This document shows positions 2,183 through 56,942 of a stretch of 64,000 nucleotides of DNA, piece by piece. This DNA comes from an uncultured Chlamydiales bacterium (lineage in GTDB: Bacteria > Chlamydiota > Chlamydiia > Chlamydiales > JAAKFR01), in the NCBI GenBank assembly GCA_963699155.1, contig OY969414.1:267757-331756 (forward strand), given 5' to 3'. Position 1 is the first letter of the stretch. The number at the start of each line of letters is the position of its first letter. The notes below the pieces were generated by a model. The model worked only from the letters and a program-made list of their open reading frames with translations. It did not search any database and had not been told where the DNA came from. The translations under genes and the position numbers were made by a program.

Positions 2183-2422
2183 AACCTGAGTTTTGGGTTG
2201 ATTTCCCTCGCAATCAGAGGAGTTTTTCGAGATGAGCTTGGGTTTTTTTTGCGAAGTTCATAGCCGAAGGCGACAAGGTACCTCGAAAGAGCTCCAGCGG
2301 AGCTCTTACGATGGGTTGTCCGAGAGTGACGTAGTCCCGAGGGGATTATTAACGAGCAAAAAAACACAAGATCAGCCGAAAAAGTCCCTGAGTGTGAGGG
2401 AAATCAACTCAAAACTCAGGTT
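2183..2422. mobile_element. MITE-like element with terminal inverted repeats
   Basis: 27-bp TIR AACCTGAGTTTTG(G/A)GTTGATTTCCCTC with 1 mismatch, degenerate IR continuing ~40 bp inward; core shares GACAAGGTACCTC...GATGGGTTGTCCGAGAGT with the 53-54 kb repeat. Confidence 0.85.
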
Positions 2423-47662: not shown

Positions 47663-48483
47663 CCTCTTTTTCTGAATCCTATTTTTCCTACATCCTCAGC
47701 AAACCGCTGACTGAGGTGTGGAAGGTCTTTTTGCTCGGTTTAGCCAGAGTTGTGCCCGCCATCGCACTTGCCCCCTTCGTCGGCGGAAAAATGTTGCCCG
47801 ATGCCTTCAAGCTAGGCCTTGGACTGCTCGTCGTTTTGATCTTCCTTCCCATTCTCGTGGTCCAGCACTCCACTCCCATCGTCTCCGATCTCACCTTCAT
47901 GCTCCTGCTGACAAAAGAGGCGTTCATCGGCGCCATCTTAGGCTTTATGGTCTCGATCCCCTTTTACTACATCCAGGGGGCTGGCGCCCTCATCGACCAT
48001 CAGCGGGGCAGCCAAAGCTTGCAGGTGATGGATCCCTCGACCCAGATGCAAACCTCTCCCTTTGGCACCCTCTTCAATGACATGATGCTGGTGATTTTCT
48101 TCTACATCGGCGGGCCCATCCTCTTTTTTGACGCCATCTTCGACTCCTACGCCGCCCTTCCCTATGACCAATTCTTCCCTCCCGCCTTCTTCGATCTCAA
48201 CCACCCCATCTGGGTCAGCATGATCGAAATCTGCAACATCGTCATCAAAATTTCCCTACAACTCTCGGCCCCTGCCGTCATCGCGATGCTGCTCTCCGAC
48301 CTCTTCCTCGGTATCGCCAACCGCATGGCTCCCCAAGTCCAGATCTCCTTCCTCCTCTGGTCGCTCAAAGCTTTCGTCGGCATCGCCATGACCTGGGCCG
48401 CCTGGTGGCTCACGATCAAGCAATTTGAGCGCGAAGGCCTCACCTGGATGAAATACTTCACCAAATTTGTCACTGATCTATAA
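47653..48483 (+). CDS. sctT: T3SS export apparatus SctT
   Basis: LARVVPAIALAPF, AGALIDHQRG, SDLFLGIANRMAPQVQI. Confidence 0.95.
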   Translation: MEIASFSESYFSYILSKPLTEVWKVFLLGLARVVPAIALAPFVGGKMLPDAFKLGLGLLVVLIFLPILVVQHSTPIVSDLTFMLLLTKEAFIGAILGFMVSIPFYYIQGAGALIDHQRGSQSLQVMDPSTQMQTSPFGTLFNDMMLVIFFYIGGPILFFDAIFDSYAALPYDQFFPPAFFDLNHPIWVSMIEICNIVIKISLQLSAPAVIAMLLSDLFLGIANRMAPQVQISFLLWSLKAFVGIAMTWAAWWLTIKQFEREGLTWMKYFTKFVTDL

Positions 48484-48497
48484 TAATAGCTCATTCT

Positions 48498-49988
48498 ATG
48501 GCAGCTACGATCCAACTAGAAAAAGCCACCTCTCCTCGCTTAGACAGCGCACCTCCTCCATCAACTCCAGCAGTTGATGTTGCGAGCTTCGGCACCCTGC
48601 TTCTCCGGCAGCCTCCCAAAAGACAGGCAGAAATTTTGGAGAGAATTGGCCAGCTCGAAAACAAAGATCAAATTCTCCCACAAATTGTGGAGCTGGCGGC
48701 GCAGCGCGATTACAGAAAATTTTCCTCACTTTTTCTCGATCCTCAGTTTGATTACTATGCCCTCGCCGCTGTCTCAGCACAGCTTTTGACACCGATTCAG
48801 TTTGGAACTTTGATCTATGTGCGCGCAGGTTTGACAGAGGAGGTCCATGTAGAAGATATCGAGGTGGTTCCCCTTTTTGTGGACGAAGCGCCCTCACCCA
48901 GAGCGTGGAACTACATCAAACAAACCTTAAAATCTTACAAAGACCGAACCCTACTCACAGACCAGGAGTTAGCGCAATTCTTCGAGAAGATGCGCTCGTT
49001 ACCCCCTTCAGAGCGTGCTTTCGTGCTGATTCCCGATGTCCGGATAGGGCTGGAGGCCCTGCAAAACATCTCTTTTCGCTTAAATGCGAATGGCTACTTC
49101 AACCTCTTTTGCGGCCTGAAAATAGATCAGAGAAAGATCCGCATGATTCCATCGATAGGCATGGTAAAAGCCATTCTCGATGTGACTGGCGATGATGGAT
49201 TCACCTTCCGCTTATCGATTGGAGAATCAGCAGCTGAAGAGTTGCGGCTGACCCAACTCCATGAAAATGCCAGAGATTTGATGATCCCCTGCCCTAACAT
49301 AGCTCCCGCCCCCAAAAAAGCGGATGGCTTTTTATCTCCATGGGTCGATTACATCTTTCACGAAATCTATCATCTCTTTACCTGTCGCCATGTTCCTCAG
49401 AAGGTCCGCCGTTTTTTCTGCGAACTCGCTGTGCTATTCAATCCTGACCTATTTTCGACCTCCTCTGAAAAACAGGCCGCCTGGGAAATCTACACCACCC
49501 TGCTCGATTTAGATATCGGCAGCTATCGTCCCGATAATCTCGGTCAATCGGCCCCACCTCATGGAGTGATCTACTATTTATTAGAAACTCTTCTTCCCGC
49601 GCGAAGACCTTACTACATCTATTCCAAAAAACTACCCGCAGACTTTGATGCGGAAGCCCACGAAATGGCTTCTCAGAAGTTCATTTCCCAAGTTTATGGA
49701 CTCTTCGCCGTCTGGAACCTTTATAAACCAAACTACAAGCACTTTGAAGAAATTACCTCCTTTTTTTACCAATTAGAGGGCGATCTTCAGCAACAGATCG
49801 GCATGGCCTATATCAATGTTCAGTCATTTGTCCTTTACGCCGTTGAAAACGGAATCTCAGAAAAGCAATTCAACCAGCTTTCGCCAAAAGAGATTAAAAA
49901 ATTATCTAATAAGGTAATGGCAAATTTGGATGGCCTCCTCGCACAATTAAAAAGCGGCCAATCGATACAAACAATTCTCAGTGAATGA
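48498..49988 (+). CDS. Hypothetical protein with an HExxH motif, candidate effector
   Basis: S/T/P-rich N-terminus; FHEIYH at 49359-49373. Confidence 0.65.
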   Translation: MAATIQLEKATSPRLDSAPPPSTPAVDVASFGTLLLRQPPKRQAEILERIGQLENKDQILPQIVELAAQRDYRKFSSLFLDPQFDYYALAAVSAQLLTPIQFGTLIYVRAGLTEEVHVEDIEVVPLFVDEAPSPRAWNYIKQTLKSYKDRTLLTDQELAQFFEKMRSLPPSERAFVLIPDVRIGLEALQNISFRLNANGYFNLFCGLKIDQRKIRMIPSIGMVKAILDVTGDDGFTFRLSIGESAAEELRLTQLHENARDLMIPCPNIAPAPKKADGFLSPWVDYIFHEIYHLFTCRHVPQKVRRFFCELAVLFNPDLFSTSSEKQAAWEIYTTLLDLDIGSYRPDNLGQSAPPHGVIYYLLETLLPARRPYYIYSKKLPADFDAEAHEMASQKFISQVYGLFAVWNLYKPNYKHFEEITSFFYQLEGDLQQQIGMAYINVQSFVLYAVENGISEKQFNQLSPKEIKKLSNKVMANLDGLLAQLKSGQSIQTILSE

Positions 49989-50022
49989 AATAAAAAGCCT
50001 AAAATCGTATAATTTTTAACTT

Positions 50023-51064
50023 ATGGCTCTTGCTAAAGTGGAAGAACGCATTCATCGTCTGGAACTTGCCCTCAATACTCAGCGCGCATTGAACGGAGGA
50101 AGACCAGCGGATTATTGGACTATTTTTTCCCTTTCTCAAGAAACTAGGTTTCTCGGGTCAAGTCAACACTGATACTTGGCGTTTCGATGTGCTGAAGAAA
50201 AGCAAGTGTGATCAGTTAGCTGCTAAAATTATACGTTCTGCTTCAAAGGCTTATCCGTTTCTCCACGCAAAACAATCCATGACTTGGTTTACAGGGACCC
50301 TCTCAAGTAGCCTTATTGGAATGAAGCGATGGTCTTTGAAGAGTGGTTTACCTCATCCCGCTCTTGTTCCGATAGGACTTTCCGTTTCTAAAAACATCGT
50401 CCCCTCCACAGGTGAGTTAGGGCAGGGAGTCTGGTTAGGTGGGGTTAACCAGACCAAACTTTCAGGAACAACAGACTTCGTTACTGCCTATGAGTTTGCT
50501 AAAAAATGTTTGCCATTCCAAAAAGAGAAGGAGCTCGCCCTCATTCTTGAAGAGAGGGAAGAAGCGGCACTAAGAAATGACTTTTTAAGAATAAAAATAG
50601 CAGTTCTACGTTTGCTCCACTATGGAGCCCCTCCAGAAATGGTAAAGCAAGCAAGAGATCATATTACTCGGAAATATCTCCCTGGGGCCCAAAACCTTCC
50701 TCCTCGCTGGACTGAACACTTGCGTCTTGTGGGTCTTCCTACAAGACAAGTGCCACTAAAGCTGACCCCTTTTGGTGAAGGAACAGAAACAACTTTCACC
50801 CCAGGTACACTCATCGCCATTCGGTCTTCTCTCGAACAGATCTCTAGAATAGGGATGATCCTTGTAAATGACCCGGACAGGAAAAAATGTGAAGTGATCT
50901 ATTCTAAAAATGAAACCGCTTTTTATTTTGACGAATATCTTTTTAAGAACATCTTATCTTTTAGAGAGACGCCCGATCAAGTGGCCTTGTCCTATCCCCC
51001 CCATCGAAAGCAGCGCGATCGAGAAGCTGATCCCATTTTTTCCACTCAGCTATCGCCTCAATGA
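50023..51064 (+). pseudogene. Hypothetical gene split by a single-base frameshift in a T6 tract
   Basis: ATG 50023 opens a 49-codon ORF; removing one T from 50123-50128 fuses it to the frame of ORF 50189-51064. Confidence 0.5.
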
Positions 51065-51129
51065 ATGGCAGGATCTTCTGATTTGATACCGAAAAACCTG
51101 TAGAACTTTCAAAAGAAGAGAAATCCTAT

Positions 51130-51375
51130 ATGGAGAAACCCTTCCCCATCGTATGGGCTTCTATACAGAAATTCGAGTTCACTCAAGTTCGTTCGTCTTT
51201 TAAAACTGAGCGAGCCGTTGGCCAAGTACTTGAGGTGGGTAGTGACCTCACCTATCTCTTTACCAAGCGGCGCCACATTCCAGAAATGCGCAAGTGGCTC
51301 GATGATCAGCAGATCCACTCCGTCCAAGTGATGAGCTTCGGCGCCGGTTGTTACATTCACTCAACCCTCACTTAA
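51130..51375 (+). CDS. Small hypothetical protein
   Basis: 81-aa ORF in series with neighbouring genes; no recognisable motif. Confidence 0.45.
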   Translation: MEKPFPIVWASIQKFEFTQVRSSFKTERAVGQVLEVGSDLTYLFTKRRHIPEMRKWLDDQQIHSVQVMSFGAGCYIHSTLT

Positions 51376-51418
51376 TCATCCATCGATAATGGCATGAGAT
51401 CCGCTTCTAAGTACCTGC

Positions 51419-53215
51419 ATGGACTATCACCCCATAGAAAATTACGGGATTATCGGCGACATGAATACGGTCGCTTTGGTGGGTCTGCATGGTTCGATCG
51501 ACTTCATGTGCTATCCTGAATTTGACTCCCCTTCCATTTTTGCCGCTCTCTTAGATAAGACCAAGGGGGGGTTTTTTCGTATTACCCCCCAAATGGCTAA
51601 CGTCAAATATAAGCAGATCTATTTACCCGATACAAATGTCTTGCTCACCCGCTTTCTTTCACCAGAGGGAGTGTGTGAAATCACCGATTTTATGCCGGTC
51701 CAAGGTTTTTTTTCTGAAAACTATTTAATCCGGAGGGTGAAAAGCATCAGAGGAAATAATCCCCTTCATATGCACTGCGCCCCCCGTTTTAATTATGCGC
51801 GAGGTTCACACCATGCGGAGCATCGTGGCAATGAGATCCTCTTTCGAGGAGAGGGTAATGCATTACAACTCCGAAGCACTATCCCCTTGATAGCGCGTGA
51901 GGGGGATGGATATGCCACTTTTACGTTGAAGGAAGGGGAGAGTGTCGATTTTGTCTTAGGAAAGATCGATGACCGTGTGATTGATGACTTAGCCGAAGTA
52001 GTGACTAAAAGCTTGTTTGATACTATCCACTTCTGGCGGCGTTGGATCGCACGTTCTCAATACAGAGGGAGATGGCTCGAGATGATGAACCGCTCTGCCC
52101 TTCTCTTGAAGTTGTTAACTGCCAAAAAATATGGGTCTATTATCGCCTCTCCTACTTTTGGATTACCTGAACATGTCGGAGGCAGCAAAAACTGGGACTA
52201 CAGGTATACGTGGATCCGGGACGCTGCCTTTTCTTTATATGGGTTGATCCGCTTAGGCTTCACCAAAGAGGCAGAAGACTTTATCCGGTGGATGGAAACC
52301 ATGGTTTGCGATGTCAACCGCCCCGGCGAGCTCAACTTGATGTATTCGATTCGTGGGGAGAAAAAGCTCACGGAATATGAGTTAGACCATTTAGAAGGGT
52401 ATAAAGGATCGGCACCCGTCAGAATTGGCAATGCGGCTTATCAGCAGTTACAACTCGATATCTATGGGGAGCTGATCGATTCGATCTATCTGTATAATAA
52501 ATATGGGGAGACAATCTCCCAAGATCTCTGGTTCAAACTCTCCGCACAAGTAAATTGGCTCTGCAGCAACTGGAATCAACCCGACAATGGGATCTGGGAG
52601 GGTCGGGAGGGGAAACGCTATTTCCTCTATTCCCGACTCATGTCTTGGGTGGCGATCGACCGGATGATTAGAATGGCTAGGCGGAGCTCATTTCCGATGC
52701 CACTGACGAAGTGGATCGAGGTAAGAGACCAGATTCATGCGTCGATCTTCGCCGATTTTTGGAGTGAGAAAAGGAACTCATTTATCCAATACAAGGGATC
52801 AGAAGATTTAGATGCCTCTTGTTTACTGATGCCACTGATAAGATTTATCGGGCCCAAAGATCCCCGGTGGCTCTCCACACTCAAAGCGATCGAAGAAGAT
52901 CTCGTTTTAGACACTCTCGTCTATCGGTATAAATCGATGTACACCGAGGGTTCCTTCTCACTCTGTAGTTTTTGGTATATCGAATGCCTTTCACGGGCTG
53001 GCTATCTCGAAAAAGCACGCTTCTATCTAGAAAGAATGCTCGCTTATGCAAACCACCTCGGCCTCTACGGAGAGCAGCTGGGATTGCAAGGGGAGCATTT
53101 GGGCAATTTTCCGCAAGCCTTCACCCATCTCGGCTTCATCAGCGCCGCCTACAACCTGAATCAAAACCTCAACGATGCCCGCAATAAAGAGACCACTGAC
53201 TCCGAATTCATCTAG
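51419..53215 (+). CDS. Glycoside hydrolase family 15 (trehalase/glucoamylase-like)
   Basis: YGIIGDMNTVALV, FDSPSIFAALLD, WDYRYTWIRD, QLDIYGE, GIWE, GNFPQAFTHL. Confidence 0.92.
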   Translation: MDYHPIENYGIIGDMNTVALVGLHGSIDFMCYPEFDSPSIFAALLDKTKGGFFRITPQMANVKYKQIYLPDTNVLLTRFLSPEGVCEITDFMPVQGFFSENYLIRRVKSIRGNNPLHMHCAPRFNYARGSHHAEHRGNEILFRGEGNALQLRSTIPLIAREGDGYATFTLKEGESVDFVLGKIDDRVIDDLAEVVTKSLFDTIHFWRRWIARSQYRGRWLEMMNRSALLLKLLTAKKYGSIIASPTFGLPEHVGGSKNWDYRYTWIRDAAFSLYGLIRLGFTKEAEDFIRWMETMVCDVNRPGELNLMYSIRGEKKLTEYELDHLEGYKGSAPVRIGNAAYQQLQLDIYGELIDSIYLYNKYGETISQDLWFKLSAQVNWLCSNWNQPDNGIWEGREGKRYFLYSRLMSWVAIDRMIRMARRSSFPMPLTKWIEVRDQIHASIFADFWSEKRNSFIQYKGSEDLDASCLLMPLIRFIGPKDPRWLSTLKAIEEDLVLDTLVYRYKSMYTEGSFSLCSFWYIECLSRAGYLEKARFYLERMLAYANHLGLYGEQLGLQGEHLGNFPQAFTHLGFISAAYNLNQNLNDARNKETTDSEFI

Positions 53216-53235
53216 CAGTACCTAAAGCACAAAAA

Positions 53236-54395
53236 TGGGTGGGAGAGGTTTTTCCAAAATGAAGTCTAAACGACAAAGACATCACAATCGATCTTAAAGG
53301 GCTTCTCATTTATCTGTCGGGCGGATCTGTCACTAGCATGTCAGCAACCCCCTGTGCCTCGGTTCACAAGTAAACTTGTGAACTCTCGGACAACCCATCA
53401 AAAACCCTCCACTGGAGGCTTTTTGAGGTACCTTGTCCCCTTGAGCCGCATCTTGCTTTGCCATATCGCTTCAGCAGCTGGGGAGCTGTACACAGTACTA
53501 GCCCCCACGCTCCGCTCAGCTGCTGAAGCAATCTGGCTTTGCAATCTGCGGCCGCGGGCTGCTCAGGCACGAATACCCCGCCGGACTTCGTCTCTTAGCG
53601 GGGCCCCTTTCGTGTCGCTTCGCAGACATGTCTGGGGGAGGTCCCCTCGCTTCGCTCGCCCACCTCCCCCAGACCCCCTCCCCCGCCCGGTTTTGTCAAA
53701 AAAAGCTGAGAGTGACTCAGGCATTTTAGGCGAGATCTGGCGCTTGCTTCCCTCACCAGGAAGCAGAGCCGATATCCTATAGCATGGGTGTAGAGCCTTT
53801 TCATGCTGTCAGATCCTTTCCAAAAATGGGTGGGGGTGGGGTTAAAAGGGGAGGGGGGCGAGCGCAAAGCGCGAGGGGCCCTCCCCTTAAAATTACTGCG
53901 AGCTGACACGAAAGGGGCCCCCAGCATAGAGACGAAGTCACGCTGGGGAATGAGTGCGCGAGCAGCCCGAGGCCGCAGATTATAAAGCCAGATCGCTTCC
54001 GGAGCTGAGCCGAAGGCGTGGAGGGTAGTGCTGTGCATAGACCCCCGTTCGCAGGCAGGAGTGGCGAGGCATTACTCACGCAAGATGTAACCTGAGATAC
54101 TTTCACCGCCTCAGGGTTTAACCAGCACCAGGCAGTGCGGGACCGCGCCGTAGGCGCCCAGCGAGGAAGCGATATGGCAAAGCAAGATGCGGCTCAAAGG
54201 GACAAGGTACCTCAAAAAGCCTCCAGTGGAGGGTTTTTGATGGGTTGTCCGAGAGTTCACAAGTTTACTTGTGAACCGAGGCACAGGGGGATCTGACACG
54301 CTAGTGACAGATCCGCCCGACAGATCTCTAATCTACCATTTAAGTTTGATGATTGTATCTTGGGCAAATCACTTCCATCTCGACAAATCTCTCCC
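53236..54395. repeat. Giant nested inverted-repeat structure (~1.1 kb)
   Basis: Near-identical ~160-bp arms 53312-53472 / 54166-54325; diverged inner arms ~53491-53700 / ~53815-54036; degenerate outer arms reach ~53236 / ~54395. Confidence 0.9.
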
Positions 54396-54399
54396 AAAA

Positions 54400-54472
54400 A
54401 TGGGCGGGAGAGGGGTTTAAGGGGAGGGGGGCGAGTTGGTGCTGTAAGCGCCAACAAGGGGCCCTCCCTTTA
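54400..54472. repeat. Third copy of the GGGGAGGGGGCGAG...GGGGCCCTCCC(C/T)TTAA palindromic unit
   Basis: Matches 53821-53890 and the reverse complement near 53636-53700, with a different internal hairpin. Confidence 0.7.
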
Positions 54473-54487
54473 ATCTGTGAGTGGATT

Positions 54488-54904
54488 CTAAAAATCGTCT
54501 AGGGGGAATTCGGAGTTTTCGGGGAAGAGCAGCTGCTTGCCTAGTTTTTTGTGCCAGTGGATGAGTAAGGGGGCGCCGAGATTCATCGTTTGAGGTCTTC
54601 TGTCACGGTCAACGATCGCAAAGAGGAGAAGTTTTCCTTCGTTGAGAATGCCGACATCTTTGAGATCGTTGTGGGTGAGGGTCGGTTCGTAGGAGGGATA
54701 ATAGAGAAATGGATCGGCTACGAAGAAGGAGAGATTGGGGTTTTCGACCGATTCTAAGCGAAGAAAAGGGACCTCTCTCTCATGTCCGATCAGCCGATAG
54801 TGGGTATATTTTTCAAATCCAAAGAGACCTTTGGGAAAGAGGAGCTCTCTTTCAAAGGGCCAATTATCGACAGGGGGACGTTTCAATCGGTTGAGCTGAG
54901 GCAC
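54488..54904 (-). CDS. fliW: Flagellar assembly factor FliW homolog (CsrA antagonist family)
   Basis: FPKGLFGFE...PFLRLESVENPNLSFFVADPF...Y...TMNLGAPLLI...GKQL. Confidence 0.85.
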   Translation of the reverse strand: MPQLNRLKRPPVDNWPFERELLFPKGLFGFEKYTHYRLIGHEREVPFLRLESVENPNLSFFVADPFLYYPSYEPTLTHNDLKDVGILNEGKLLLFAIVDRDRRPQTMNLGAPLLIHWHKKLGKQLLFPENSEFPLDDF

Positions 54905-54910
54905 AGCCTC

Positions 54911-55282
54911 TCAGTATTTTCTAAATGACCATCGAAAAAGAAGCATCACTCCGAAGCCGATCACAGCAGCGATGATAAAAGCGGGGAGCGTTACTAATAA
55001 AAACAAAATGGTTCCTATCAACACGAGGGTTTTAAGGATCCCTTGTTCGGTGAAGTACTCTTTCAGCCGCAGAAAGTAGCTGAATATTTCCTTATGAAAG
55101 GTGAAGCCAAATCCTAAGCCAACCAGCGTAGATCCTGTGAGAATGTAGAAAAATGACAGTACCAGACCAATAAAGACGAGAATAAGTCCTACAATCTCGG
55201 TAGTGTAATTGAAGATGGGATCGAAACGGTGTGGTTCTTTTAAGGAATCCTTGCCACGTTTGTCAAAATTAGGTTCGTCCAT
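54911..55282 (-). CDS. Small membrane protein, CT565-like
   Basis: Four hydrophobic segments; EQGILKTLVL motif; located beside the Gsp cluster. Confidence 0.6.
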   Translation of the reverse strand: MDEPNFDKRGKDSLKEPHRFDPIFNYTTEIVGLILVFIGLVLSFFYILTGSTLVGLGFGFTFHKEIFSYFLRLKEYFTEQGILKTLVLIGTILFLLVTLPAFIIAAVIGFGVMLLFRWSFRKY

Positions 55283-55355
55283 GATACCTCTAAGTCTAAT
55301 GAAATTCTAGCTTTTCAATGATTTACTTGAAAGGCGCAATTTGCAGACAAAATAA

Positions 55356-55389
55356 AATTAAGAATTAGCAAATTTATTAATTCTTAATT
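55356..55389. promoter_or_regulatory. Perfect 12-bp inverted repeat in the divergent promoter of the T2SS operon
   Basis: AATTAAGAATTA-N10-TAATTCTTAATT. Confidence 0.45.
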
Positions 55390-55460
55390 GAGATTCACAA
55401 TTTGATTTAATTCTAAAGCTTCTGTATTCTTTCAGGCTTATTAGAGTGGCGGTTTAGTTA

Positions 55461-56942
55461 ATGCGCTTATTTAGCGTTGTCAATATCACTTTAGCAGCCT
55501 TAATTGCGCTGACAGCTCTCATCTTCCTTCTTCCCGCTCAAGAGGAGGATCTGGTGATCGCCATGCCACGCCCCATGCAAAAAGAGCTGCCCAAAAGTCC
55601 ATTTGGAGAGACGGAAGAATACTTTGAAGAAATTGGTGAGGGCATTTTGTCGCTTGTCTGGGTTCCACCGCAGATGCAGCTGCCCGATCTGAGAAAAGAG
55701 CTCATTTATAATGGCAAAAATTGTAGACCCGATGCTCTATTGGGACGCGCGAGTTTCCATCTTTCGTTGCGCGGATCAGGTGAGCGGGCTCTGATCAATG
55801 AGGGAGCGCGTGTCTACCTCGTTTATCAAGGCAACTTCACTCCGAAATTTCTGAAAGCAGCAAGAGCTGCACAGCAAAATGGTTCCTCAGCTCCATTTGG
55901 GGGTGAAACGGCATCACCAGCTTCTGTTTGGGGGGAGAGATCAACTCCCCTTTGGGGTGAGACACATGGGGAGGAAAACAACGAGAGAGGATGTTACGTC
56001 TTTAGCCCTGGAAACCAAGCCACGCCTCTCTGGTTTGAAATTAAAGCAGCGGGAGAGAATCTACTTGAGGTTCGCGTCCATATGCTCGATGAAAAGGGAG
56101 TCTTGGTCGTTTCTCCTACCGATTTTCGCTCATTTCCTCTCCATGCACAGGAATTTCCTAAATCGCAAACGGCGGGCTGGGATATCGGTGGATACAGAGT
56201 GGACACCACACTCCTCGTCCGTCAAAAAGCGCGTTGGATTGGTGCCGACCGCTTTCTTGAGATGCATGGCGGAGAAGAATTTAGTTACACAATTGGTAGA
56301 GAAAGAATCGATTTCCTAGAGGGAGAAGAGCCCTATTCCTGCTTCGTTTGTGAAGGGGATTATTTGGTTTGGGAAGATGAAAAATGGTGTTACGGAAATA
56401 GTTTAGACAACACGGGCCAACTTCCTCTCCTCGTTGTCAAAAAAATCGATGAAAAGATCATGACCTTCGAGCTTTGGGACCCTGAAGGAAAGGGGAAAAC
56501 CATTCTGAGCCTCATTCGCACCAAAGATCATCAGCTGCTTCCCAATGTTTCCCAGGAATTGAAATTTGTCGGTGCCAAAACATGGGCCCAATTTATCGTC
56601 GAAAGCAAAAATGGGGGTAGGCTCAACTTGAAGCTGCATGACTGGCTTGTTCTTACCCAAGAGGGATGGATGAAGCTAGATGCACCGGAAAAAATTGATG
56701 CCTTTGTCGCACAACATATCACAGGGCCACTCTTTATTTTAGATAAGATGACAAAGCAAAATGGCAGGCAGGTCTTGATGGGCCATCTCTTTAATGCCAC
56801 TCGAACTGAAGTGGAGGAGGTGGAGTTGACCGCTTCTTCAACTACTTCGATTGCCAATTATTATCGGCACATCCCCATCAATCCCCCTATCATGCCCGCC
56901 ACAGCTGATATTACGGTAGAAGGTAGCGAAAGATGCGAATAA
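55461..56942 (+). CDS. CT573-like protein, first gene of the chlamydial Gsp operon
   Basis: N-terminal TM; RVDTTLLVRQKARWIG.DRFLEMHGG motif; upstream of gspD. Confidence 0.75.
   Translation: MRLFSVVNITLAALIALTALIFLLPAQEEDLVIAMPRPMQKELPKSPFGETEEYFEEIGEGILSLVWVPPQMQLPDLRKELIYNGKNCRPDALLGRASFHLSLRGSGERALINEGARVYLVYQGNFTPKFLKAARAAQQNGSSAPFGGETASPASVWGERSTPLWGETHGEENNERGCYVFSPGNQATPLWFEIKAAGENLLEVRVHMLDEKGVLVVSPTDFRSFPLHAQEFPKSQTAGWDIGGYRVDTTLLVRQKARWIGADRFLEMHGGEEFSYTIGRERIDFLEGEEPYSCFVCEGDYLVWEDEKWCYGNSLDNTGQLPLLVVKKIDEKIMTFELWDPEGKGKTILSLIRTKDHQLLPNVSQELKFVGAKTWAQFIVESKNGGRLNLKLHDWLVLTQEGWMKLDAPEKIDAFVAQHITGPLFILDKMTKQNGRQVLMGHLFNATRTEVEEVELTASSTTSIANYYRHIPINPPIMPATADITVEGSERCE

Follow-up and report, generated by a model that had tools for sequence, protein, structure and literature searches.

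The DNA analysed here is a window of 64,000 nt (G000:C1:267757-331756) from the genome of an uncultured Chlamydiales bacterium, which consists of a single contig of 2.40 Mb with a G+C content of 47.5%. Coordinates preceded by "g" are positions on the whole genome (G000:C1), and all others are positions in the window. As the congeners are long-read MAGs of the MFD series, this genome too was probably assembled from a metagenome with long reads. Three same-genus MAGs (MFD10064.bin.2.108, MFD02416.bin.1.76 and SRP262948_co1_220) have repeats in common with it.

A palindromic nest of repeats fills the gap 53216-54487 between two convergent genes, a GH15 gene on the forward strand and fliW on the reverse strand (Table 1). 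In the congener G002, sctT (80% identical) and fliW are convergent neighbours separated by 145 bp. Here, in the region 47653-54904, the spacing from sctT to fliW is 6.0 kb and contains two orphan ORFs (ORF496 and ORF291), the GH15 gene and the nest. GH15 had no match in congeners G001-G003 or in G025, and ORF496 was likewise not found in the three congeners. In G003 the same junction is filled otherwise, by a 156-aa ORF, and fliW is missing from it. As the content of the sctT-fliW junction differs among congeners, the nest sits at a variable junction, which can be marked as a variable spot within the genus. The nest contains three ORFs, of 142, 147 and 101 aa, none with a Pfam match, and for annotation the ORFs of 101-147 aa within it should be treated as spurious.

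Architecture and module composition of the palindrome

Four nested inverted pairs were identified by an inverted-repeat search of the window (Table 1), and layer identities were calculated by globally aligning the left arm with the reverse-complemented right arm. The middle layer (53316-53482 against 54157-54321) was identical at 160/167 positions (95.8%), the inner layer (53483-53695 against 53810-54042) at 73%, and the outermost 40 bp, representing the outer layer (53276-53315 against 54322-54361), at 60%. These alignments and inverted pairs bear out the first-pass annotation, which had described a nested palindrome of ~1.1 kb with three layers of unequal arm similarity, near-identical arms of ~160 bp, diverged inner and outermost arms and a short centre, here 114 bp. 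The short hairpins it had noted within the arms are also present, TTCACAAGTAAACTTGTGAA at 53363-53382 and AAAAACCCTCCACTGGAGGCTTTTT at 53399-53423, both mirrored in the right arm. It had missed a 114-bp unit (T) that interrupts the right arm only and makes that arm longer; the palindrome is not symmetric.

The longest exact inverted repeat measured 92 nt, whereas 200 shuffles gave 10.7 on average and 16 at most, and the stretch 53231-54476 is predicted to fold as single-stranded DNA into one long hairpin (-464.5 kcal/mol). Widely spaced inverted repeats of such a size are generally tolerated. The persistence of a long near-perfect palindrome had been raised as an instability puzzle; the perfect arms are short (92-125 bp) and ~690 bp apart, so that no special account of persistence is needed. 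The palindrome has no clean inverted-repeat ends and no target-site duplication, and its ends are copies of modules.

Table 1. Coordinates of the flanking genes, inverted pairs and repeat modules at the locus (window positions).
Feature	Position	Strand	Description
GH15 glucoamylase/trehalase-like gene, 598 aa	51419-53215	+	Pfam PF00723, 1.5e-70
fliW, right flanking gene	54488-54904	-	Pfam PF02623, 3.4e-26; G002 ortholog 63% identical
Inverted pair	53348-53472 / 54166-54290		125 nt, 99% complementary
Inverted pair	53511-53579 / 53945-54013		69 nt, 83%
Inverted pair	53600-53650 / 53871-53921		51 nt, 80%
Inverted pair	53276-53351 / 54286-54361		76 nt, 74%
Truncated outer G fragment (loop and 3' stem of CTCTCCC/GGGAGAG hairpin)	53231-53253	+	Direct repeat of 54395-54418
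Outer shell, left half (a and b_out)	53254-53315	-	Colinear with left half of IS4-derived MITE-A
b hairpin, left copy (GTCGGGCGG...CCCCCTGTG)	53316-53356	-	92.7% complementary to 54282-54321
F-H block, left copy (83 bp, two hairpins)	53357-53439	-	83/83 complementary to 54199-54281
P hairpin module (e, loop, f), left copy, empty T site GCTGGGGAG	53440-53566	-	Inverted pair I5, 36-nt arms
Module g, left copy	53567-53634	-	13 genomic copies; best 95% at g32k, 79% to right arm
Inner G hairpin, minus orientation (REP-like, GC-rich)	53635-53695	-	G-family match
Centre, 114 bp	53696-53809		97.4% identical to g2206992-2207105
Inner G hairpin, plus orientation, AGGGGAGGGGGGCGAG-loop-CGAGGGGCCCTCCCCT	53810-53900	+	~26 clean genomic copies
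Module g, right copy	53901-53962	+	Module matches
P hairpin, right copy, first half (f')	53963-54042	+	Inverted pair I7; 97% identical to g410782-410853
T unit, solo copy in P loop	54043-54156	+	Family also forms tandem arrays
P hairpin, right copy, second half (e')	54157-54198	+	Inverted-pair, module and arm alignments
F-H block, right copy	54199-54281	+	100% complementary to left copy
b hairpin, right copy	54282-54321	+	Arm alignment
Outer shell, right half (b'_out and a')	54322-54394	+	100% identical to g410429-410502; colinear with right half of MITE-A
Outer G hairpin, plus orientation	54395-54476	+	Ends 11 bp before fliW stop codon

Module borders were defined by the breakpoints of genome-wide BLASTN matches. 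In this search against the organism's own genome, which the first-pass annotation had proposed, almost every base of 53231-54476 fell within repeat modules dispersed in the genome; 53240-54435 is nearly all dispersed repeat, with 54 islands genome-wide, and the centre alone is rare. The order in the window is G (truncated), a, b, F, H, e, f, g, G(-), centre, G(+), g, f, T, e, H, F, b, a, G(+). Module g is a short linker, H and F are two small hairpins, and b is a hairpin followed by the short pieces b_out and a. The P module is a hairpin of 123 bp with 36-nt arms, made up of the halves e and f. The G hairpins are REP-like, GC-rich and 37-57 bp long, of the form AGGGGAGGG-GGGCGAG-loop-CGAGGGG-CCCTCCCCT, and their orientations along the locus are -, -, +, +. 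G occurs at 26-41 loci (~26 clean), and copy numbers of the other modules are 11-54. The centre has only two genomic copies and was not found in 30 relatives. On the minus strand of the centre (53706-53720) lies a terminator-like hairpin, CTGAGTCACTCTCAG, followed by T7, which is conserved in the second copy of the palindrome.

Dispersed copies and the origin of the layers

The second copy of the whole palindrome is located at g2206559-2210200 (2.206-2.210 Mb), where it is split by an IS481-family and an IS4-family element. After in silico removal of both insertion sequences it is a colinear paralog of 53243-54325 that retains the two arms and the centre (97%), carries T in the arm corresponding to that of the window, and has a full G(-) hairpin where the window has the truncated outer fragment. 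Its identity to the window is ~97% from the loop of the inner G(-) hairpin through the centre, G(+) and g', ~95% over the rest of the right arm and 82-85% to the left. The switch in identity falls exactly at the interruption by the IS481-family element (IS-B), which sits in the paralog's loop equivalent to that of the inner G(-) hairpin, and is what heterology-limited exchange between the two loci would be expected to give. The possibility that the entire palindrome transposed as a single unit was also considered and is unsupported, the two copies being truncated at different ends and without duplications.

This paralog also bears on whether the palindrome could be an assembly artefact, either a fold-back chimera or copies of a repeat wrongly joined. 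A region made of repeats in what is probably a long-read metagenome assembly would offer the opportunity for this. A fold-back chimera would not yield arms that differ by layer (60-96% identity) or a T unit on one side only, and the same architecture is found independently at 2.206-2.210 Mb; from these three observations a fold-back chimera is unlikely. At the right flank, the genes next to fliW are intact, and the pspC-like gene upstream of it has an ortholog near sctT in G003. Altogether, we regard an artefact as highly improbable.

Elsewhere in the genome, the single-arm order G-g-P-(T)-H-F-b-G recurs at ~10 other loci, and at g2375779-2376206 one single arm spans all three layers contiguously, at 84%. 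The layers, being contiguous in such single-arm copies, are not three concentric insertions, as had been suggested. The more general proposal of a BIME/REPIN-like mosaic formed by repeated insertion fared better, as dispersed modules are found inside or beside one another, and both F-H and T have empty-site counterparts.

F-H is present in 11 genomic copies, 100% identical in eight and 98% in the other three, and the modules flanking it at those loci are 75-93% identical. It is missing at an otherwise homologous junction of b and e, read across an insertion sequence at g2274.4k (...CCCCCCGCGACC joined to CCTTGAGCCGC), and from the corresponding composite in congener G001, and in congeners the H part alone is present, in other contexts. 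Judging from its near-invariant copies and from the junctions without it in a paralogous copy and in G001, F-H inserted recently and site-specifically, always at this one junction, and is the youngest layer of the nest; its invariance could instead reflect gene conversion or selection.

The near-identical 160 bp of the two arms consist of the genome-invariant 83-bp F-H block and of flanks in which the arms resemble other copies as closely as they resemble each other. For module e, identity is 93% both to its counterpart in the other arm and to five other loci, and modules f, g and G show 84%, 79% and 76% to the other arm compared with 92-95% to copies elsewhere. These values weigh on an in-situ inverted duplication, in which fold-back or template switching at the inverted G doublet would have been followed by divergence and partial arm-to-arm gene conversion. 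Such an event would fit the mirror-symmetric arrangement around the inverted pair of G hairpins and a high-similarity tract that ends exactly at the heterology created by T in the right arm, but it is an improbable origin, given that outside F-H the arms resemble each other no more than they resemble other copies, and that the high-identity core is invariant in 11 of 11 genomic copies and not just in the two arms. The ranking of identities already speaks against left and right module copies being sisters. On the same two grounds, gene conversion between the arms is not needed to account for the near-identical layer.

The T unit belongs to a family of 111-112 bp with ~54 genomic copies, solo or in tandem, with arrays at g739.8k, g756.3k and g2375.4k. 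The filled right P loop reads GCTGGG-T-GGGGGTCT, while the left loop (GCTGGGGAG) and the corresponding loop of the paralog (GCTGGGGGTCT) are empty; the filled site shows a GGG duplication. By comparison of these sites, T is a later insertion into the P loop. Solo T units are also found in at least six loops of G hairpins.

The nearest relatives of the left-arm pieces differ from piece to piece (g1231k 100%, g32k 95%, g446k 94% and g445k 92%); the stretch 53259-53315 is 98% identical to g1231036-1231092, the 100% match at g1231k being to b_out (53276-53315). This patchwork points to recombination among copies. Recent copying is seen on the right side, where 53971-54476 is 99.2% identical to g410348-410853, which lies in another intergenic gap. 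That locus is a right-arm copy of 506 bp (f T e H F b a G) in a divergent gap, and an ORF from the minus-strand neighbour runs into the copy.

The outer layer is colinear with the body of MITE-A, an element of 399 bp whose own halves are just 64% complementary, so that the low similarity of this layer is built in. A closer correspondence, in which each outer half would match the corresponding half of MITE-A, was only weakly supported (left 75% against 61%, right 66% against 66%).

Insertion sequences, MITEs and transposition enzymes

Scanning with DDE_Tnp_1 (PF01609) identified an IS4-family element of 1368 bp (IS-A) in three copies (g941509, g2208710 and g2274383). IS-B, the IS481-family element situated next to it, is 1243 bp long, encodes a 373-aa transposase (NF033577 at 262 bits) and has the ends TGTATAG...CTTTACA. 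It occurs at g2207156-2208398, g31274-32516, g33103-34345 and g942951-944193, in the loop of a G hairpin in all four cases and with 7-bp duplications in two of the four. MITE-A is a derivative of IS-A of 399-400 bp with the inverted-repeat ends of this resident IS4-family element (g445378-445776, g1229303-1229701 and g2084516-2084915). Both IS-A and MITE-A target CCC(T/A)GCGACC or CCCTGCTTCC, which is the 3' stem of the b hairpin, and generate 10-bp duplications; the 3' stem of the left b hairpin in the window is the counterpart of this insertion site at other loci. The end sequences of IS-A and IS-B are absent from the window region g320972-322244, and the ends of F-H, T, P and G match those of neither element.

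A search for RAYT, IS200/IS605 or IS630 enzymes had been proposed, and profile searches of the complete genome returned none. There was no match to Y1/RAYT and IS200/IS605 (PF01797), with the control positive in 6/14 genomes, and none genome-wide to IS110 (PF01548), IS630-type DDE_3 (PF13358) or TnpB (PF07282), with positive controls.

Several further arrangements of these elements were observed. At g31273-34345, two inverted IS481-family copies in terminal G hairpins bracket a complete arm (G g f T e H F b G), a layout that resembles a composite transposon. Shorter elements of 120-125 bp with the ends of IS-A/MITE-A are present at g193732, g2083887 and g2172708. Hairpin tip loops are flipped between near-identical copies, both in the 18-bp centre of MITE-A (g445560-445600 compared with g2084700-2084740) and in the 10-nt loop of the CTCTCCC/GGGAGAG hairpin (window 53233-53242 compared with 54397-54406), which suggests inversion via exchange between the stem arms.

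Probable nested insertion, function and likeness to known repeat systems

We interpret the locus, with a probability of roughly 0.75, as a head-to-head pair of composite repeats, a BIME/MITE-like mosaic that has grown by nested site-specific insertion. This interpretation draws on the observed module make-up, copy numbers, filled and empty sites, insertion sequence targets with their duplications, and the second palindrome copy. One composite non-coding arm (G-g-P-H-F-b-a-G) would have been paired head-to-head around the 114-bp spacer, between convergent genes and at the edge of the 6 kb that G002 does not have between sctT and fliW. The arms are made up of small, lineage-specific hairpin modules scattered in the genome (REP-like G, MITE-like P, b and others), and it is into these that further elements preferentially insert. 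The junction of b and e receives the 83-bp F-H, the loops of P and G hairpins the 111-bp T, the G loops the IS481-family element, and the 3' stem of the b hairpin the IS4-family element and its 399-bp MITE. With targets mirrored in both arms, successive insertions together with recombination among dispersed copies may have produced layers of unequal similarity. For F-H and T we infer active, site-specific spread, and exchange among copies would explain the patchwork of nearest relatives.

A more far-reaching version holds that the G loop, the P loop and the b-hairpin stem are dedicated landing pads for at least four unrelated elements, and that F-H and T spread by an undescribed route free of RAYT, TnpB, IS110 and IS630. 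We consider this version doubtful. If true, either an IS4 or IS481 transposase would be hijacked through structure and not end sequence, or the route would be host-driven and rely on replication or hairpin formation. Palindromes would in that case gain one layer after another.

Selection for a functional element, whether a bidirectional terminator, an mRNA-stabilising hairpin, a structured RNA or a protein-binding site, was weighed against nested insertion. The H stems are terminator-like on both strands, with seven terminator-like sites compared with 2.4 expected, although they are just 5 bp long. Their pairing is kept by compensatory changes at 2/5 pairs across four genomes, but the loci in this comparison were picked by an exact flank pattern, an ascertainment bias that extends to the invariance of the flanks. 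The location between convergent GH15 and fliW, and a hairpin of similar shape (by eye) 3' of fliW in congener G002, would suit such a role. The same modules, however, are found in a variety of unrelated settings, some interrupted by insertion sequences, and identity reaches into the loop bases, which speaks for recent copying more than for selection. A search of 52500-55500 against Rfam at a permissive threshold gave nadA as the best hit (22.5 bits, compared with a gathering score of 37.5; E = 0.06), and no evidence was found for the structured-RNA or nucleoid role that had been proposed. A selected element therefore appears unlikely as an explanation of the locus. The H stems look like weak bidirectional terminators, and individual hairpins may act as terminators or at mRNA ends; there is no sign that the palindrome itself has a role, and it probably has no dedicated cellular function, and the finding does not point to a new one.

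For the preferred reading, a mosaic grown by nested insertion, the closest known systems include the BIMEs of enterobacteria and pseudomonads, mosaics of REP/PU hairpins (PMC2817692, PMC3333891, PMC3184786). The G hairpins share with them an intergenic location, often between convergent genes, GC-rich imperfect palindromes in both orientations, spacing by other conserved motifs, and use of the hairpins as targets by insertion sequences. They differ in their low copy number (~26-41 G hairpins rather than hundreds, below the >100 per genome expected of REPs) and in the lack of a RAYT; the modules are longer, and MITE-sized and minisatellite-type units are included. REP hairpins carry a GTAG (or CGTC) tetranucleotide as an end tag (PMC3733652); GTAG was seen at none of the ends of the G hairpins listed, and CGTC is found in the ends of a separate MITE, H2. 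REPINs are inverted REP doublets mobilised by RAYT (PMC3116915). The G(-)-centre-G(+) segment is likewise an inverted REP-like doublet with a spacer of ~114 bp that can fold as one hairpin; unlike a REPIN, it has no RAYT, and the doublet with the present centre exists in only two copies and is not replicated in many, and nothing indicates that it moves as a unit.

IS-derived MITEs such as Nezha, Chunjie, the Correia elements and the Rickettsia RPE (PMC3184786, PMC3733652) are also comparable, being short, hairpin-forming elements without transposase, and MITE-A has insertion sequence ends and 10-bp duplications. The palindrome in the window, in contrast, has neither the ends of a resident insertion sequence nor a target duplication, and presence or absence at homologous sites, as expected of MITEs, was found for the sub-modules F-H and T and not for the whole palindrome. 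REP-targeting insertion sequences include IS1397/ISKpn1 (IS3), ISPpu9/10 and IS621 (IS110) and ISRm22 (IS4), and the families named in a survey of such targeting are IS3, IS110, IS4, IS256 and IS5, with IS481 not among the five (PMC1525189). The IS481-family element in 4/4 G loops and the IS4-family element or its MITE at the b-hairpin stem behave similarly, but these insertions are in the paralog and at other loci and not within the window copy. The T unit, solo and in tandem arrays of 111-112 bp, is similar to minisatellites of the MIRU type, except that solo T units prefer the hairpin loops of other repeats. To our knowledge, this preference is not a described property of MIRUs.

Apart from traces in one further family within the order, the repeat families were confined to the same genus. 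JGI metagenome contigs, scanned for exact patterns of the centre and of F-H, gave no matches and hence no independent assembly, and a full-text literature search found no description of REP/MITE families in Chlamydiae. The modules are new, lineage-specific families of a known kind, a BIME/MITE-like nested mosaic, and known processes explain most of what is seen. They document such a nested repeat system in an environmental chlamydial lineage without RAYT, supply clean target-site data on two elements, one of the IS481 and one of the IS4 family, and provide a concrete case of how a large multi-layer palindrome can arise from site-specific insertions into mirrored hairpin targets.

Other mobile elements were observed in the same genome. 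A separate MITE family of ~170 bp with the ends ATTCAACGCAAAGACG and CGTCTTTGCGTTGAAT is present at g70084, g534906, g885313, g912716, g1345030, g1490924, g2332251 and window 2267-2327, and contains a variant F-H pair whose stems differ in sequence yet remain complementary (AGCGCCA/TGGCGCT and CTGAC/GTCAG). Two further insertion sequences, one of ~1415 bp in ~15 copies (g661423-662837 and ~14 more) and one of 1454 bp in five (g1434941-1436394 and four more), are nearly identical among their copies, and the genome is rich in apparently recently active insertion sequences.
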